Assembly: GCA_963789265.1 (NCBI GenBank)
Contig: CAWBKB010000007.1
Span: forward strand, 96,001-160,000
Source of the DNA: an uncultured delta proteobacterium
GTDB taxonomy: Bacteria > Desulfobacterota > Desulfomonilia > Desulfomonilales > Desulfomonilaceae
Reading direction: 5' to 3'
Length of the DNA: 64,000 bases
The position numbers were made by a program, and so were the translations under genes. Positions 9,976 to 16,773 of the stretch are shown in pieces; the stretch's first letter is position 1; each line of letters starts with the position of its first letter. A model generated the notes under the pieces. It was given only the letters and a program-made list of their open reading frames with translations, was not told the origin of the DNA and made no database searches.

Positions 9976-10809
9976 TTAGGGGCAATCATGTATTGGGCTT
10001 TCCTTGGCTCCGTGTGCCCTCAAGAGTTCTACGATTTCATCACTTGCTGCCCAATCCAGAGCAGTAGTGCAATGCATGCCGCCTACGTGATTGATATCCG
10101 GCCCCTTGTCCAACAGGGCCTGCACTATCTCTACATTACCATCCGATGCAGCGAACATCAGTGCTGTCCAACCACTGTCATCTTTGGCATTGACATCGGC
10201 TCCTTTGGCCAAAAGTAACTTCACGATCTCAAGATGTCCACTTCCCGAGGCTTCCGAGAGCGCTGTCCGTTCATACTCACCCTTGGCATTTACGTCCGCA
10301 CCCTTGGCCAATAGAATCTTAATTACCTGCAGATGACCATGTCTGGAAGCCCCCGCAAGCGCTGTCCCGATATCCTGGCCATCTATGCCCTTTTCCAGGA
10401 ACTCACGAACTTTTTCTGTATCCCCGAGCATAGCTGCTACTTCCAACGTGAGTATGGCTCCTCGTTGTTTCAGCAACTCAGCCATTCTTCGGCGACCCCA
10501 ACAAGCGGTGAGCCAGATTGCCGTTTTGCCATACCACCCTGTTGCATTGATGTCGGCCCCATTGTCCAGCAACAGATTGACAGTTTCCAGGTGATCGCCA
10601 TAGACGGCTCTAAGGAAGGCTGTGTCACCACGCTTGTCTTTCGCATTGACATCGGCCCCTTTGGCCAAAAGGTCTTGCACCTGCTTCAAGTCGCCCTTCA
10701 AAGCCGCTTCCGTTAACGCATCCTGATCATTCGCAAAGCTCTCGTAACAGAAAACTGACAAAACAATGAGCAGCGCTGTTGCCACTATGCCAATTCCGAG
10801 TCTGTGCAT
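9976..10809 (-). CDS. Secreted ankyrin repeat protein
   Basis: Signal peptide; repeated GHLEIVKLLLAKGADVNAKD..G.TAL. Confidence 0.93.
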   Translation of the reverse strand: MHRLGIGIVATALLIVLSVFCYESFANDQDALTEAALKGDLKQVQDLLAKGADVNAKDKRGDTAFLRAVYGDHLETVNLLLDNGADINATGWYGKTAIWLTACWGRRRMAELLKQRGAILTLEVAAMLGDTEKVREFLEKGIDGQDIGTALAGASRHGHLQVIKILLAKGADVNAKGEYERTALSEASGSGHLEIVKLLLAKGADVNAKDDSGWTALMFAASDGNVEIVQALLDKGPDINHVGGMHCTTALDWAASDEIVELLRAHGAKESPIHDCP

Positions 10810-10905
10810 CTATGAATCCCTCCCTCCCGCAACGTCGTCTCATGAGGGTGCAATTGTTCAGCTAAGTGGATGACCCCACTACTATTCGACGAAAGGGGTC
10901 GGAAA

Positions 10906-10986
10906 GGGGTCAGATCTATTCTTAACTCATTTCCGAGCCGCTTGACAGGAAGCCACCCGCAGAATATGAGTTAAGAGCAGACTTGA
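10906..10986. repeat. Family I palindromic repeat, interrupted by IS110 (continues at 12502)
   Basis: GGGGTCAGATCTATTCTTAACTCATTTCCGAGCC...AAGAGCAGACTTGA then IS, then CCCCTCG. Confidence 0.85.
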
Positions 10987-11058
10987 TAATCATAAAAAGG
11001 CACCTCTGAGTCGGGAATGTGGTATCCCCGACTTGCCATTAACCGTAGGAGGTGCCCG

Positions 11059-12078
11059 ATGGAAGTATATGCGGCGCTTGATCTTCATGCAAGCAACAGT
11101 TATCTGGCGGTGGTAGAGCGAGAAGGAAAGAGGGTGTTCAACAGGAGGCTTGTTAATGATTCGGCTGTTCTCTTGAATGCCCTTGAACCTTACAAGGAAG
11201 GTATGCAAGGCATAGCAGTGGAATCCACCTTCAACTGGTACTGGGTTGTGGATGCGATGATGGAAGCGGGATACCGAGTGCATTTGGCCAATCCTACCGC
11301 TATACAAAAATACAGTGGAATGAAACATTCCGATGACAATAGCGATGCATTTTGGTTGGCGGAAATGTTACGCTTAGGCATTCTACCTGAGGGATATATA
11401 TATCCACGGGAAGAGCGCCCGGTGAGAGACCTGCTACGCAAACGGATGCATCTGGTCAAGCTGAGAACCTCACTTATTAACAGCCTGCAAAATATCCTCG
11501 CTCGTAGTATGGGCGTGAAGATTGGGGCCGCCAAGATAAAACAACTGACTAATGATCTTGTTTCACCGCTCTTGGAGCAGGACGAGAACCTGGCTCTGAC
11601 CGGCCAGGTGAGCAAGCAGAGCATAGATTTCCTCACGCGACAAATCAAGAAGGTTGAAAAGAAGGTTCAAGGGAAAATCGAATTGAAGAAGGAATATGCT
11701 TGCCTGACGACCATCTCCGGCGTGGGGGTTATCCTGTCGCTCACCATCATGCTTGAAACAGGCCCCATAAGTCGTTTTCAGGCTGCGGGGAACTATGCGT
11801 CCTATTGCAGAAAGGTTCCGACTCGCTGGACCAGCAACGGGAAGAGCAAGGGAACAGGTAACAAGAAGAATGGCAACAAGTACTTGGCATGGGCCTTTTC
11901 CGAAGCTTCGGAACTCGCCCGGCGCTTTGATCCGGCAATCAGAGCCTGGTTCGATCGGAAGGTATCCAGGACCAACCGTATGTGCGCTCACGCCGCGCTG
12001 GGCCACAAACTGGCACGAGCGGCGTATTATATCATGAGGGACCAAGTTCCCTTTGACAACAAGAGGCTTATTGGTTAG
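11059..12078 (+). CDS. IS110 family transposase (DEDD RuvC-like recombinase)
   Basis: AALDLH, AVEST, KHSDDNSDA, TISGVG, SYCRKVP...SNGK, GNKYLAWAFSEA; AGGAGG RBS. Confidence 0.95.
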   Translation: MEVYAALDLHASNSYLAVVEREGKRVFNRRLVNDSAVLLNALEPYKEGMQGIAVESTFNWYWVVDAMMEAGYRVHLANPTAIQKYSGMKHSDDNSDAFWLAEMLRLGILPEGYIYPREERPVRDLLRKRMHLVKLRTSLINSLQNILARSMGVKIGAAKIKQLTNDLVSPLLEQDENLALTGQVSKQSIDFLTRQIKKVEKKVQGKIELKKEYACLTTISGVGVILSLTIMLETGPISRFQAAGNYASYCRKVPTRWTSNGKSKGTGNKKNGNKYLAWAFSEASELARRFDPAIRAWFDRKVSRTNRMCAHAALGHKLARAAYYIMRDQVPFDNKRLIG

Positions 12079-12470
12079 ACGACTGGCGTAGGCGGCGACC
12101 CTGAGTAGGGGTTGGAAAAACCACCAGATTTGATTGGGCAGCCGCCTACCCCACAGATCCGGGGAGCCGGACTCTTTGCCGCCCATGCTGTGAGCCACTA
12201 AAGGGTTGGTTCAAAACCATGAGATTTGTCCTATTCCTCTTGGACACAGCATGGAACCGAAGATTTTCTGGTCCGCAATAAGCGGAAGGGGCAGGACCTC
12301 TAAGGTCCATGCCTTGATCCTGATGGGTGACTGGTGCGGTGAGGATAACTACCGACACCACCTGAGAGAAGTACCGGCAAAGGCGAAGAGCAGGCGCTGA
12401 CGGACGCTGTGCGAAACACGGCCGTACTCTCAGCAAGGAAACGATTCTTTCCTTGCTACAGGAGAGTCTT
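12079..12470 (+). ncRNA. Putative bridge/seek RNA in the IS 3' non-coding end
   Basis: Stem-enclosed loops contain AGGGGT and CAGATTTGA, matching the target CAGACTTGA|CCCCT; ATGGGTGA resembles the donor end ATGGGCGA. Confidence 0.7.
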
Positions 12471-12601
12471 TTCCCTTGACAGAGGGCCTTTTAATGGGCG
12501 ACCCCTCGTCCAGCAGCGGTGCAAAAAAAACTTCTTTTTCGTGTCCGTCAGCCGTCCCCGCCTTCCAACACATACAAATTCAGCGATTTTGCCGTTTACC
12601 G

Positions 12602-14899
12602 TTATTCTATCGACGGCTTCAGCTCCGGGACCGTTTTCCACTGATTGACATAAGTCATGATCGCGGCCATCACCAACGGAATGACGCCGAACGCGATAAA
12701 GACACTGTCACCGGGCAAGCGTATCCATTCAATTGTCCTTGCAAACCCCTGGTTAAGGTAGGTAAGCCCGCGCGCATGCCAGTACCCGTGGACCAGTACG
12801 TTGTGCAACTGCAGGATGCCGCCCGGGAAAAGAGTGCACACGATCATAAGCGCCAACCCAATGTTCAAACCCCAAAAGGATACGCGTATGTATTTTTCAA
12901 TGCGCGCCCATTGCATGTCTGTTGACGCCTGGCGAAAGGCAAGGACCATGAGGGCTACCGCCTCCATACCGAATACGCCCATTAGCGCAGCGTGACCGTG
13001 GTTTGGCGTAAGCATCGTGCCCACTTCGAAATAACTTACGATGGGCAGATTGATCAGAAACCCGAAGATGCCTGCACCGACGAAATTCCAAAAGCCTACG
13101 GCCATCAGGAAATAGAACGTCCATTTATGCGGGATGGCGATCGGTTTTCCACAGACGTCGCACGTGCCCCTGGTCAACTTGATGAAGTCCCAGGCATCCA
13201 GCGTCAAAAGGGTTAGCGGGACAACTTCCATGGCCGAAAATAAGGAGGAAAGGGCGAGGTTTACATTGGTCTGGCCCGTCCAATACCAGTGATGGCCTGT
13301 GCCGATGATTCCGCTTCCCAGAAACAGGATGGCATCCAGGTAGATAACCCTGACCGCTGTATTGCGCGCGACCATGCCCAGCCTGTAAAAGGTGACGGCT
13401 ACCATCGTCGTTACAAAAAGTTCGAAGAAGCCCTCGACCCACAGGTGGATGATCCAGAAACGCCAGTTGTCAACAATGGAATACTCCGTGGTACTTTTGA
13501 AGAAGAAGGCCGGCAGGTAGAAGACGGGGATCGTCAAGGCCGATATCATGAAAAGCCACGATATTTCCTTGCGCTCAGGATCTTGGAGGGCGGGCGTAAT
13601 CGCCCGGTACACCAGGATGGCCCAAAGCACCAGTCCCAGGGCGAGAAGGATTTGCCAACCCCGGCCGAGGTCCAGATACTCCCAACCCTGGTGCCCAAAC
13701 CAGAACCAGAATTTGCCGAGGAGTTGATCGATGCCCAGCAGTTCTCCCAGAAGACTTCCGCCAACAACTATCACCAGCGCCCAGAAAAGCAGGTTTATTC
13801 CCTTCACCTGCCCCTTGGGTTCGTATTCTCCCAAAGCGCTGCCAAGCAGCAGGCCGCCCCCCACAAAGGCTGTAGCAATCCAGAAAATGGCCAACTGAAG
13901 GTGCCAGGTTCGCAGGATAATGCTCGGAAACACATCGTATAAAGGAATCCCGTAGAAGCTTCCCGGCTCTGCCCTGAAGTGCGCGGTAGCCCCGCCTACA
14001 AGCACTTGCGCCAGGAAAAGGAGGGAGACCACAAGGAAAAACTTGATGGTCGCTCTCTGGGTCTCACCAGCCCTGCCGGGCAACATTTGCGGATGGATGT
14101 GCGGCCTTGCTCCCCTCCAGCCAAGGTAATCGAATCTGCCGAAGGCAAACAACACCACAGCCGTGCCGACAAGAAGAGCAATAAGGCTTATGGCGCTCCA
14201 GAGCACGGCGTTACCTGGCGGAACATTGCCCACCAGCGGGTCGTAGGGAAAATTGTTGGTGTAAGTTACCGAGCCGCCCGGGCGGTTTACCACCGAAGCC
14301 CAGGCTGCCCAAGCAAAAAATGCCGTAAGTTCCTTCAGTTCTTTGGGATTGCTGATATAGTCGGGCCTAAGTCCGCCGTTCAGGTCTGGCGAGGAGAAAT
14401 AATGTGTCCACAGGCCCACCTGCTCCTTGTAAGAATTCGCCTCCGGGTCGGTGAAAACCAGTGTTCGGGTCCTCGGGTCGTAGCGGTTTTGTTTCAGAAG
14501 GAGTCTGACTTTGTCTTCAACGGTCGCCCGCTCTCCTCGTGACGGTTGGTTCACGTCGTGGCCGAAGAGCTTTTGAGCCATGGTATTTGCAGCTTCGACG
14601 CCAAGGGTGTGAAGGTAAGCTGCCGAAAAATCCGGTCCGAGGTAGGCCCCATGCCCCCAGAGAGTACCATTTTCCATGAGCCCGTACTTCTCAAACACCT
14701 TCTGGCCTGCCAGGATTTCTTGCCCGGTCAAAAGTGTCTTCCCCGAGGTGGTCACTATTTTCTCTGGAATCGGCGGAGCGTCGCGGTAGGCAAGGACTGC
14801 AACCAGAATCAGGACTGAAAACCCCGCCAGCACTACGAGAATTACCGCACGCACCCACCAGGGTGATAGTCCTTCATCCATTTTTTCAGCAGGTGTCAT
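12602..14899 (-). CDS. norB: Quinol-dependent nitric oxide reductase (qNor)
   Basis: WGHGAYLGPDF, WIIHLWVEGFFE, GTGHHWYW, HGHAALMGVFG. Confidence 0.95.
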   Translation of the reverse strand: MTPAEKMDEGLSPWWVRAVILVVLAGFSVLILVAVLAYRDAPPIPEKIVTTSGKTLLTGQEILAGQKVFEKYGLMENGTLWGHGAYLGPDFSAAYLHTLGVEAANTMAQKLFGHDVNQPSRGERATVEDKVRLLLKQNRYDPRTRTLVFTDPEANSYKEQVGLWTHYFSSPDLNGGLRPDYISNPKELKELTAFFAWAAWASVVNRPGGSVTYTNNFPYDPLVGNVPPGNAVLWSAISLIALLVGTAVVLFAFGRFDYLGWRGARPHIHPQMLPGRAGETQRATIKFFLVVSLLFLAQVLVGGATAHFRAEPGSFYGIPLYDVFPSIILRTWHLQLAIFWIATAFVGGGLLLGSALGEYEPKGQVKGINLLFWALVIVVGGSLLGELLGIDQLLGKFWFWFGHQGWEYLDLGRGWQILLALGLVLWAILVYRAITPALQDPERKEISWLFMISALTIPVFYLPAFFFKSTTEYSIVDNWRFWIIHLWVEGFFELFVTTMVAVTFYRLGMVARNTAVRVIYLDAILFLGSGIIGTGHHWYWTGQTNVNLALSSLFSAMEVVPLTLLTLDAWDFIKLTRGTCDVCGKPIAIPHKWTFYFLMAVGFWNFVGAGIFGFLINLPIVSYFEVGTMLTPNHGHAALMGVFGMEAVALMVLAFRQASTDMQWARIEKYIRVSFWGLNIGLALMIVCTLFPGGILQLHNVLVHGYWHARGLTYLNQGFARTIEWIRLPGDSVFIAFGVIPLVMAAIMTYVNQWKTVPELKPSIE

Positions 14900-14996
14900 C
14901 TTTTCTCCCTCCTTGATTACACTTCCGGTTCCTTTCTCAATCAGAAAGCGTTCTGCACCAACCCTCTGTGACCTCAACGTATTGCAAGATGAAAAC

Positions 14997-15082
14997 GGGG
15001 TCAAATCTATTCTTAACTCATTTCCGAGCCACTTGATAGGAAGCCACCCGCGGAATATAAGTCAAGAGCAGACTCGCCCCCC
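14997..15082. repeat. Family I palindromic repeat
   Basis: GGGGTCAAATCTATTCTTAACTCATTTCCGAGCC...AAGAGCAGACTCGCCCC. Confidence 0.85.
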
Positions 15083-15134: not shown

Positions 15135-15485
15135 TCATGGGTGTGGAGTTATTGCTATGATCATAATTTGGTCTATTCCGGGACCGTAGCACCAGAAAAG
15201 TCGGTAAGCACCAGGGGTACTCTGCTGAACATACGCCTCGAACACTTTGCTTCCGGGCGTATGAGGGTGTCGCTTGGAATGGAATTCATGGGTGTTCAAT
15301 CCTGAGTGCCGAGGGTTTTCTTTTAAGAGATCAACACATTTCTTCACTTGCTTGAAAAGACCTTCGGAACGAGATACTTTGGGCCTCCCCTTCCTTTGTC
15401 TGGCTTCTAACGATGAAATGGCCTCAGCTTTCAGCCGGTCGTAGGTCTCTCGTGCCTTTTGCGTCCAAACAAGGGTGAACGCCAT
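15135..15485 (-). CDS. RelE-like toxin (putative)
   Basis: LLKENPRHSGLNTHEF...FEAYVQQSTPGAYRLFWCYGP...IIAITPHP; directly follows an AbrB-like gene. Confidence 0.7.
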   Translation of the reverse strand: MAFTLVWTQKARETYDRLKAEAISSLEARQRKGRPKVSRSEGLFKQVKKCVDLLKENPRHSGLNTHEFHSKRHPHTPGSKVFEAYVQQSTPGAYRLFWCYGPGIDQIMIIAITPHP

Positions 15486-15486
15486 C

Positions 15487-15753
15487 CTAATCCTCAAGCT
15501 GATCCACTAGGGCTTGATCAGCATGTAGATCAGGGGGAGGGCTGAACGTCCCTGCTTCGGCTTGCTCTAAACCGATCTCGAGCAGAGCCTTGGCTTCAGG
15601 ATTCTTATAAAGCCAAAGCTCCCTCTCCGGTATGACTGCAGCGAGTTCCAGTTTAAACTCCGTTTCGCCAATCTTTTCAAAGAGGACCGTCTTATTGGCG
15701 AACTCTTTGCCGAGATTGATTCGACCTCGTGAATCTACTTTCCTCGTTTCCAT
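15487..15753 (-). CDS. AbrB/MazE-like antitoxin
   Basis: KVDSRGRINLGKEFA...IPERELWLYKNPEA. Confidence 0.75.
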   Translation of the reverse strand: METRKVDSRGRINLGKEFANKTVLFEKIGETEFKLELAAVIPERELWLYKNPEAKALLEIGLEQAEAGTFSPPPDLHADQALVDQLED

Positions 15754-15952
15754 GATGGTGTGTCTCCTTAGACCCAGGATATCATCAGAGCTTACCCGCG
15801 TCAAATGGGTAGATGGGCTAAACCCACATCGATAGGACATTCCAGCTAAGGCGTGTGTTCCTTCTTGATTCCACCGCTTGGAAATCGTTTCTGCCAAAGG
15901 GGTCACATCTGCTCATGGCTCCTTTGTGAAAAGGGGAAAAGGGGTCAAAAAG

Positions 15953-16037
15953 GGGGCAGTTCCACTCTTAACTCATTTTCGAGCCGCTTGATAGGGAGCC
16001 ACCCGCAGAATATGAGTCAAGAGCAGACTTGACCCCT
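15953..16037. repeat. Family I palindromic repeat (empty IS110 target)
   Basis: ...CTCTTAACTCATTTTCGAGCCGCTTGATAGG...AAGAGCAGACTTGACCCCT. Confidence 0.85.
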
Positions 16038-16215: not shown

Positions 16216-16773
16216 TTACAAGAAGGGGTTTTTTTCATCAGTCCATACCAGACGGCATTCAAAACCCTTCAGCTTTGTAGCCTTAACCCGCTCGACGAAA
16301 TCATCAGTGACTAAGACATCCATTAAAACCGCCTGCGGGATCTTGAACACCTTTAGGCCTACAAGACGATTTGGGAAAAAAGAATAACGGACGATATACA
16401 TGATTCTGCCGCTGCTGAACCGCTTCACTTGAGAATTCTCTTCATTCAACGTATCAACAACGCGAGTTACATTAAACAAAAAATAGTCTTCGCCATCGCA
16501 GGTTATGGGCAGGAGTTCCCCGTTTCCTTCCAGCATATCAGCTAAGGCATTCACAGCTTTACGATTAAATACTGGAATGTGGCTGCTCAAGCCTGGAAAA
16601 TCTCCAACCAAACGAGGAGCCTTGTAGAATTCAAATTTTCGTTCTTTGCCCGTCCAAGTATACTTTATTGTCCTGCCATCGAAACGCCGGCTGAACTCCA
16701 CAATGCCCTTCTCACTGCCATACAATAGGCTTCGATACTTATTGACATCTGGGCGAAGTACATAAACTTTCAT
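16216..16773 (-). CDS. Imm11/DUF1629-like immunity protein
   Basis: GDFP...PVFNRKAV..L....ELLPI....YFLFNVT..VD.L...S....V.DDF.......LKG; immediately downstream of an AHH toxin. Confidence 0.75.
   Translation of the reverse strand: MKVYVLRPDVNKYRSLLYGSEKGIVEFSRRFDGRTIKYTWTGKERKFEFYKAPRLVGDFPGLSSHIPVFNRKAVNALADMLEGNGELLPITCDGEDYFLFNVTRVVDTLNEENSQVKRFSSGRIMYIVRYSFFPNRLVGLKVFKIPQAVLMDVLVTDDFVERVKATKLKGFECRLVWTDEKNPFL

Follow-up and report, generated by a model that had tools for sequence, protein, structure and literature searches.

An IS1111-group insertion sequence with candidate RNA guides in a REP/REPIN-like repeat of a Desulfomonilaceae genome

RNA-guided recombinases of the IS110/IS1111 kind have been known since 2024 and are in development as genome-editing tools. 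Mechanistic work has mostly concerned IS621 and ISCro4, and the IS1111 group is less understood, especially in how the element ends are recognised. Here, we describe an IS1111-group insertion sequence (IS) of ~1,515 bp, located at positions 10986-12500 (± 2 bases) of a 64,000-nucleotide stretch from an uncultured delta proteobacterium of the Desulfomonilaceae (GenBank assembly GCA_963789265.1, contig CAWBKB010000007.1, positions 96,001-160,000). This whole stretch is the window referred to below, and features lie on its forward (+) strand unless marked otherwise. In the IS1111 seekRNAs described in PMC11187229, the RNA is encoded directly after the gene, and the match to the top strand lies 5' of the match to the bottom strand.

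It is highly probable that the element in the window is an IS1111-group member of the IS110 family, that it inserted without target duplication into the right arm of a repeat resembling repetitive extragenic palindromes (REP) and REPINs, and that a loop in its RNA guides it. Its family membership, its insertion site, the covariation of the RNA structure and the covariation of guides with flanks are established here.

Insertion sequence and target site

The borders of the IS were placed by comparison with an empty site, the uninterrupted REP arm ATGAGTCAAGAGCAGACTTGACCCCT at 16012-16037. The left junction reads CAGACTTGA|TAATCAT (10986/10987) and the right junction ATGGGCGA|CCCCT (12501/12502), with the remainder of the arm, ACCCCT, at 12501-12506; in the empty site, too, TG is followed by these bases. 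The span of 10986-12500 includes a single copy of the shared dinucleotide. Comparison of empty and occupied sites gives no target duplication beyond the bases common to both junctions, and these bases (TGA, in the window copy GA only) leave an ambiguity of 1-2 bases in the ends. The IS splits the right arm of an 87-bp palindromic repeat. To its left, at 10905-10985, stands the left part of the interrupted REP doublet, with the left arm (10905-10930), a spacer, and the right arm from 10966 to the TG at 10984-10985. A preliminary description, made from the sequence alone, had proposed an insertion in a palindromic repeat with a surviving empty site, as found here; the start that it gave, 10906, fits the start of the left repeat arm and not that of the IS. 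A 21-base arm pattern with up to 3 mismatches has 3 matches in the window (0.01 expected), and 0 of 100 shuffles gave 3.

The sole long open frame within 10700-12700 is the transposase/recombinase gene at 11059-12078, which encodes 339 amino acids and has an AGGAGG ribosome-binding site upstream. Its product has an N-terminal DEDD (RuvC-like) domain (PF01548, E = 2.7e-16, residues 6-149) and a C-terminal Tnp domain (PF02371, E = 4.6e-12), and it scores 184.9 bits against a cut-off of 140 with NCBIfam NF033542, ‘IS110 family RNA-guided transposase’. Candidates for the D, E, D and D residues, in LDLH, VEST and SDDNSDA, were picked by reading the sequence. The only solved relatives in the PDB are the ISCro4 and IS621 recombinases (E ~1e-11, C-terminal half); the Ser of PTRWTS is aligned with that of PRRYES in ISCro4, and is followed by N and then G instead of by G. 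The non-coding ends are very unequal, with 423 bases downstream of the gene (12079-12501) and 72 upstream (10987-11058). Read from the sequence, subterminal inverted repeats lie at 10995-11008 (AAAAGGCACCTCTG) and 12480-12492 (CAGAGGGCCTTTT); 13 bases match, with one additional base on the left. The counterpart in relatives is TAAAAGGCACC / GGTGCCTTTTA, with an exact core of 8-12 bp. The domain matches, the long 3' non-coding end and the subterminal repeats all agree with the IS110/IS1111 assignment made earlier.

The assembly (9 contigs, 6.06 Mb) holds three full copies of the IS with 99-100% identity and intact frames: the window copy, a copy truncated at the end of a contig, and one on contig C1. 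Apart from these three copies, no IS110-family genes were found in the genome at E ≤ 1e-5. Mapping of the copies and their flanks, which the preliminary description had put forward as a check, gives CAGACTTGA on the left of all three and a deviating right flank for the C1 copy. In addition, there are four lone right-end remnants of 42-107 bases (C1:349356-349462, C8:84383-84465, C7:313395-313436 and C7:315032-315073), followed by GACCCCT in two cases and GACCTCT in one, with one truncated; they are left over from earlier insertions or from internal deletions. The IS is a new and apparently recently active IS1111-group member living on a REP family.

The C1 copy (C1:1413401-1414916, locus L003) has the normal left flank CAGACTTGA, and its right side continues with CTCATCAG, a ~58-bp direct repeat of the same REP doublet, after which the arm ends in GACCCCT. 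At this copy, GCTCTTGA|CTCAT resembles the target. The arrangement would fit an exchange between copies at two doublet sites, or recombination of the right junction with a pseudo-site.

The target repeat is REP/REPIN-like and tied to a Y1 transposase. Its 26-base arm, which has its own small palindrome (GTCAAG...CTTGAC), occurs 44 times in the genome with ≤5 mismatches, as against 0 occurrences for each of 5 shuffled patterns, and 7 inverted arm doublets span 85-87 bp. Inverted arms also bound two 1,037-bp units (C1:91547-92583 and C4:127843-128879), each encoding 320 amino acids that combine a Y1 IS200-like transposase domain (PF01797) with a helix-turn-helix of the DnaA-C type (PF08299); the genome has 4 additional Y1 matches elsewhere. 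This layout of arms and Y1 gene is as described for REP/REPIN elements and RAYT transposases in PMC3337134 and PMC3116915. The Y1 gene being present in two copies, these units may represent an IS200-like element that is active and has miniature derivatives, instead of a domesticated, single-copy RAYT. Sites of the type AGAYYYGACCCC are concentrated in the repeat family, with 24 of 33 inside REP arms against ~6.6 expected from composition, and 31 of the 44 arms would pair with both guides described below. Elsewhere in the window, a degenerate doublet at 14996-15082 has the right arm AGACTCGCCCCCC, which would no longer pair with the guides, and a lone REP arm (15898-15923) adjoins the empty site.

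Loop segments and insertion flanks

Directly after the stop codon lies a candidate target-binding loop module (12084-12153), the equivalent of a short seekRNA. Its outer stem (12084-12096/12141-12153) has an inner CC/GG closure and includes GTAGGCGGC (12088-12096) paired with GCCGCCTAC (12141-12149). The stem encloses a 5' guide (T1) AGGGGT at 12107-12112, a small hairpin, TGG-AAAAA-CCA, at 12113-12123, and a 3' guide (B1), AGATTTGA plus T, at 12126-12134. These parts stand where the preliminary description had placed them, with CAGATTTGA at 12125-12133 as the second guide. In the right flank ACCCCT (12501-12506), T1 is complementary to the top strand. B1 has the same sense as the left flank AGACTTG, with a single mismatch in the window (T vs target C, which allows a U-G wobble), and its final bases match the first IS bases AT. 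Searches of Rfam returned four matches, all far below gathering scores (best E 0.6), and no bridge-RNA or seekRNA family was matched. In a single sequence, guide matches of 6 bases and of 8/9 are weak; comparison with relatives is what raises them above chance.

A scan of one genome per species yielded 79 loci with 49-92% identity, mostly in records from Desulfobacterota, Nitrospirota and Geobacter-type genomes, of which 78 were analysed. IS ends were placed by the conserved TAATCAT and AATGGG, and loop segments were extracted by patterns; loci truncated at contig ends, or in which no end or module could be recognised, were left out. We kept 52 left-side and 56 right-side pairs, which collapsed to 35 and 40 distinct guides, respectively. 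Nearly all relatives have the module directly after the stop codon, in the order stem, variable segment, TGG..CCA hairpin, variable segment to TGA, TTGG, and return strand. In L039, L040, L042, L043, L046, L050, L077, L025, L031, L065 and L066, it lies 230-360 bases past the stop (vs ~20), the non-coding end having gained an extra segment between gene and RNA module.

Structure and guides both covary among these relatives. In an alignment of 46 sequences (A1), the specified structure is paired in 94.5% of cells, compared to ≤55% in slid controls. Eleven of the 12 outer-stem pairs have changed on both sides, and the covariation score was reached by 0 of 500 shuffles. The small hairpin is paired in 99.3% of cells, with no pair changed on both sides. 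The 3' guide agrees with the left flank (positions -10 to -4) at 178 of 245 positions (shuffle mean 113.3, sd 6.5; 0/10,000 shuffles; 35 guides); positions -8 to -1 track the flank, unlike -10 and -9. For the 5' guide, the reverse complement, aligned from the third base after AATGGG, agrees with the right flank at 201 of 320 positions (shuffle mean 174.6, sd 5.7; 0/5,000; 40 guides). At registers 0, 1 and 3 after AATGGG, agreement was not strictly above shuffles (417, 3,329 and 145 of 5,000 shuffles, respectively, reach the observed value). The L041 clade fits register 0, and was counted as mismatched in the main test.

The clearest cases are relatives with differing guides that sit in matching sites: L018 (GAGACCCGA / ACGCTACA, with ACGCTACA matching at 8/8), L072 (CATGACTTGA / GTTTCGTC), L063, L019 (with L068; ATTATTGA), L055 (left side only), L066 (GGCCCGA), and L047 (with L048; AATCATGA and AAATATGA). 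The 5' guides of the retargeted L018, L063, L072 and L041 clade follow their own flanks. L014 and L015 share the window guide AGATTTGA, and their sites are AGATTTGA and AGACTTGA, respectively. That the two loop segments behave as guides across relatives is thus supported by their sequences: the 3' guide tracks the left flank and the 5' guide the right flank. Both the earlier proposal of guides to this target and its suggested check, covariation of the non-coding end with the targets, come out in favor of guidance.

Agreement between loop and flank could also arise by hitch-hiking, with the loop a scaffold carried along in lineages that share targets and the protein reading the REP hairpin to choose its site. 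GGGGT, AGAYYTGA and ACCCC-type REP-like sites are in fact common to most relatives, and a second loop further downstream (12183-12254), paralogous to the first (T2 12198-12206, hairpin 12207-12219, B2 12220-12229), correlates with the flank as well (175/234 vs 150.7 in shuffles, sd 4.5). However, wherever the two loops disagree (B1 vs B2), the flank agrees with B1 in 44 instances, with B2 in 7 and with neither in 3. Furthermore, L018, L019, L047, L048, L055, L066 and L072, which have unrelated targets, changed guide and flank together, and other IS1111 members were reprogrammed in experiments reported in PMC11187229. Hitch-hiking is therefore very improbable as the source of the agreement.

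Several points nonetheless weigh against guidance by the loop as set out here. The extraction patterns fix the last two bases of the 3' guide. The shuffles ignore relatedness, and lineages share ancestry even where only distinct guides are used. The 5' guide of L055 does not match its own right flank, and the 3' guide of L041 matches its left flank at just 6/10 positions. Sites in most relatives are of the ACCCC type, with 9 of 40 distinct guides non-ACCCC, so that the 5'-guide test rests on few independent retargeting events. Within the genome itself, one of three copies, that on C1, has a non-canonical right flank. Finally, no RNA run was listed as containing the sequence, and the circle junction was not seen in the contigs of four DNA runs over 10800-12700; these contigs end at the IS borders (10983 and 12506) and none spans the IS, which has no bearing on its activity.

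A same-sense match of AAGAGCAG (12386-12393) to the REP arm was treated as chance, since an estimated ~0.3 such matches are expected.

The relatives, which number in the dozens in Desulfobacterota, Nitrospirota and Geobacter-type genomes, amount to a natural experiment that can be read directly. On the left, eight guide positions covary with the target, and on the right some five or six do; the two guides differ in how the base following the crossover behaves. These guide and flank patterns provide testable predictions for the design of IS1111-type guides. The added value lies in the natural covariation set, the probable TG core, an end segment that tracks the flank, and a paralogous second loop. 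As far as the host genome is concerned, a site-specific IS that lives on a REP family is nothing unusual.

Crossover core and end recognition

For 53 distinct insertions, we compared the last three bases before TAATCAT with the first three after AATGGG. The combinations are TGA / TGA (42 insertions), TGA / TGC (5), TGA / CGA (2), TGA / TGG (2), CGA / CGA (1) and TGA / TAA (1). GA closes the left side in all 53, and the right side starts with TG in 50 of them, in line with insertion that is specific to both site and orientation, as is the comparison of empty and occupied sites. The dinucleotide common to both junctions is TG in 50 and GA in 45, which makes TG (more generally YG) the more likely crossover core on this sequence comparison, in place of the GA core claimed in the preliminary description. 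With GA as the core, the element and its guides would be the same and the IS would run from 10987 to 12499. The window copy speaks for this, as it shares GA alone (TGA on the left, CGA on the right), and so do the 45 insertions sharing GA (TGA/TGA, TGA/CGA and CGA/CGA). Yet seven insertions (five TGA/TGC, two TGA/TGG) share TG without GA, and in these an internal segment, ATGGGTGN, follows the flank base. A C at the first core position, as in the window copy, could still wobble-pair with the guide U, and the right end is TGA in the other two genomic copies. A GA core is possible, though rather unlikely.

The internal segment is a copy of the right junction, ATGGG + TG + AC, at 12323-12331. The resemblance of ATGGGTGA (12323-12330) to the donor end had been noticed before; the match to the IS end stands, and the earlier account was incomplete in that the segment also copies TG and the first flank base. 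ATGGGTGA is the sole match of at least 8 bases to the modelled donor junction (the joined ends) in the non-coding end, and 64 of 69 distinct non-coding ends carry it with ≤1 mismatch. In 51 of 54 distinct pairs (the misses are L067, L085 and L089), the 8th base of ATGGGTGA is the same as the third base following AATGGG; these 51 include all 7 non-A cases (C in L017, L041, L044, L048 and L057; G in L055 and L072). Since this base follows the flank, the segment copies the right junction (IS end, TG and flank) and not just the IS end. The 3' guide of the target loop ends in GATT in 46/46 aligned sequences, even when the target has C or G after TG, and its bases after TG are the first IS bases. 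The segment is the best candidate for a donor-end guide, and by analogy with the handshake guides of IS621, both guides may run two bases beyond the core into the partner sequence.

In the consensus fold (RNAalifold, 28 sequences), the end-like segment is single-stranded within a predicted multi-branch loop, which would be closed by a long-range helix between 12173-12181 and 12337-12345; one pair of this helix is UA in 21 and CG in 6 sequences. A local hairpin (12333-12362) is predicted as a competing fold. Within 12331-12362 (columns 116, 331 and ~352 of alignment A2), one base covaries with its partners in both the long-range helix and the local hairpin, which could reflect two alternative folds or coincidence. 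Donor-binding bases in a multi-loop are noted for many IS1111 members in PMC11208160.

The same segment can be read as a second right end at the DNA level, comparable to the A'/B' boxes of ISPpu9 and giving rise to shorter circles or deletions, with the protein recognising the ends via the subterminal repeats. The L065 element stops at the internal copy, which is followed by CCCCTTTCC, the usual right flank. Alternative ends give several circles in ISPpu9 (PMC12288879), and an 82-base seekRNA was enough for ISEc11 according to PMC11187229, whereas the segment here lies 245 bases past the stop codon. However, a pseudo-end has no reason to copy the flank, which the 8th base of ATGGGTGA(C) follows in 7/7 non-A cases, and the predicted single-stranded position adjoining a helix and the uniqueness of the donor-junction match also favor a guide. 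A DNA-level second end in place of an RNA guide is somewhat unlikely. The two readings are not mutually exclusive, because DNA encoding such a guide necessarily resembles the IS end.

The closing stem of the second loop keeps its pairing via compensatory changes, and the loop segments resemble an ACCCC-type target that has been copied and evolves slowly. We rejected this loop as a simple donor loop: its sides match the modelled donor junction in neither sense, and its 3' side follows the flank far less than that of the first loop. A tripartite RNA, with the target loop, the second paralogous loop, and a distal segment reading the right IS end, TG and two right-flank bases, is a tentative proposal that we consider unlikely in full. 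The second loop or the end guide may already appear in published folds of other IS1111 members (PMC11187229, PMC11208160).

No match of at least 6 bases to the first 9 IS bases (ATAATCATA) was found in the non-coding end in either sense. A nearly invariant AAGATTTTCT (12260-12269; conserved in A2) is a weak candidate for a guide to the left IS end; in our own reading it could form 7/10 pairs with the top strand of TGATAATCAT, and variation at one of these positions is not matched by any in the IS end. Further downstream, a strong hairpin read from the sequence, GCAAGGAAA/TTTCCTTGC (12433-12457), precedes a T-rich stretch and is paired in the single-sequence fold; it may mark the end of the transcript.

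Joining of the two ends would bring TTGACA (12476-12481), 18 bases and GATAAT together, the -10 half consisting of GA (12500-12501) and TAAT (10987-10990), as had been read in the preliminary description. Both halves are present, and the ends of 36 of 39 distinct relatives can be modelled to give TTGACN and GATAAT with a spacer of 16-18 bases. As modelled, the promoter would form only upon joining of the ends.

Genomic setting and relation to known systems

The IS and its repeat are flanked on one side by the 3' end of a gene resembling quinol-type nitric oxide reductases (NorB cytochrome-c-like and COX1 domains) and on the other by the start of an ankyrin-repeat gene, ~180 bp upstream of which they lie; the flanking genes are at 12602-15004 (-) and 9976-10809 (-). 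Beyond them, at 15135-15906 (-) and 16216-16773 (-), there are overlapping frames of 139 and 120 amino acids in a toxin-antitoxin layout beside an Imm11 immunity-protein-like gene. The 139- and 120-amino-acid frames had no Pfam match.

By analogy with the described systems, excision would join the two IS ends into a circle, and the circle junction would form a sigma-70-type promoter transcribing the recombinase gene and the 423-base 3' non-coding end. The first 70 bases past the stop would fold into a stem around an internal loop that includes a small hairpin. On its 5' side (AGGGGU), the loop would pair with the top strand in the right half of the target, and on its 3' side (AGAUUUG) with the bottom strand in the left half plus the crossover dinucleotide, most likely TG, at which the recombinase would swap strands. 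Downstream, the second loop and the conserved end-copying stretch may sit in a multi-branch loop. We infer from this analogy that the RNA is made and processed, binds the protein and drives recombination by pairing.

The target repeat resembles REP/REPIN-RAYT systems in its short arms with an internal palindrome, its inverted doublets of 85-87 bp, and a Y1 HUH gene between inverted arms. It differs in that the Y1 gene occurs twice (RAYT is typically single-copy), in the DnaA-C-type helix-turn-helix, and in having only 44 arms.

Among IS1111 elements with seekRNAs, the comparison is with ISEc11, with ISPa11, which targets REP sequences, and with ISKpn4/ISPst6, which target attC, as described in PMC11187229. 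The window element is like these in its 339-amino-acid DEDD + Tnp transposase and long downstream non-coding end, its subterminal inverted repeats, the lack of target duplication, the modelled junction promoter and the folded repeat as target. It is also alike in that the candidate guide module follows the stop codon directly and has its top-strand match on the 5' side of its bottom-strand match. The protein here has no close relative in the PDB. The subterminal repeats are spaced by ~16 bases across the modelled junction here (with an 11-base repeat; ~11 if it is read longer), compared to the published 7 + 3. The target is a different REP family, and the 423-base end, with its second loop and distal end-like segment, extends beyond the published RNAs of 82-172 bases.

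As in the bridge RNAs of IS621 and ISCro4 described in PMC11208160, PMC11208158 and PMC13626964, a stem and internal loop hold two guides around a hairpin, with one guide directed to the bottom strand on one side and the other to the top strand on the opposite side. There is a shared core dinucleotide, and a guide may extend 2 bases past the core into the partner sequence (the handshake). On the opposite strand, guide, hairpin, guide and extension would come in the same order as in IS621. In contrast to IS621 and ISCro4, the RNA is encoded at the 3' end instead of the 5' end, the two guides come in the reverse order with respect to the gene, and the core is TG (or GA) where theirs is CT. The candidate donor guide is in a predicted multi-branch loop and not in a simple second internal loop, and the protein match is distant (E ~1e-11, C-terminal half). 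If both two-base extensions are functional, IS1111 elements would use the handshake principle of IS621, and their loops would be the IS621 loops on the other strand. The reported ‘reversed order’ of the matches would then reflect a flipped polarity of the element, and not a different mechanism. The second loop might act in excision or accommodate a second recombinase dimer.

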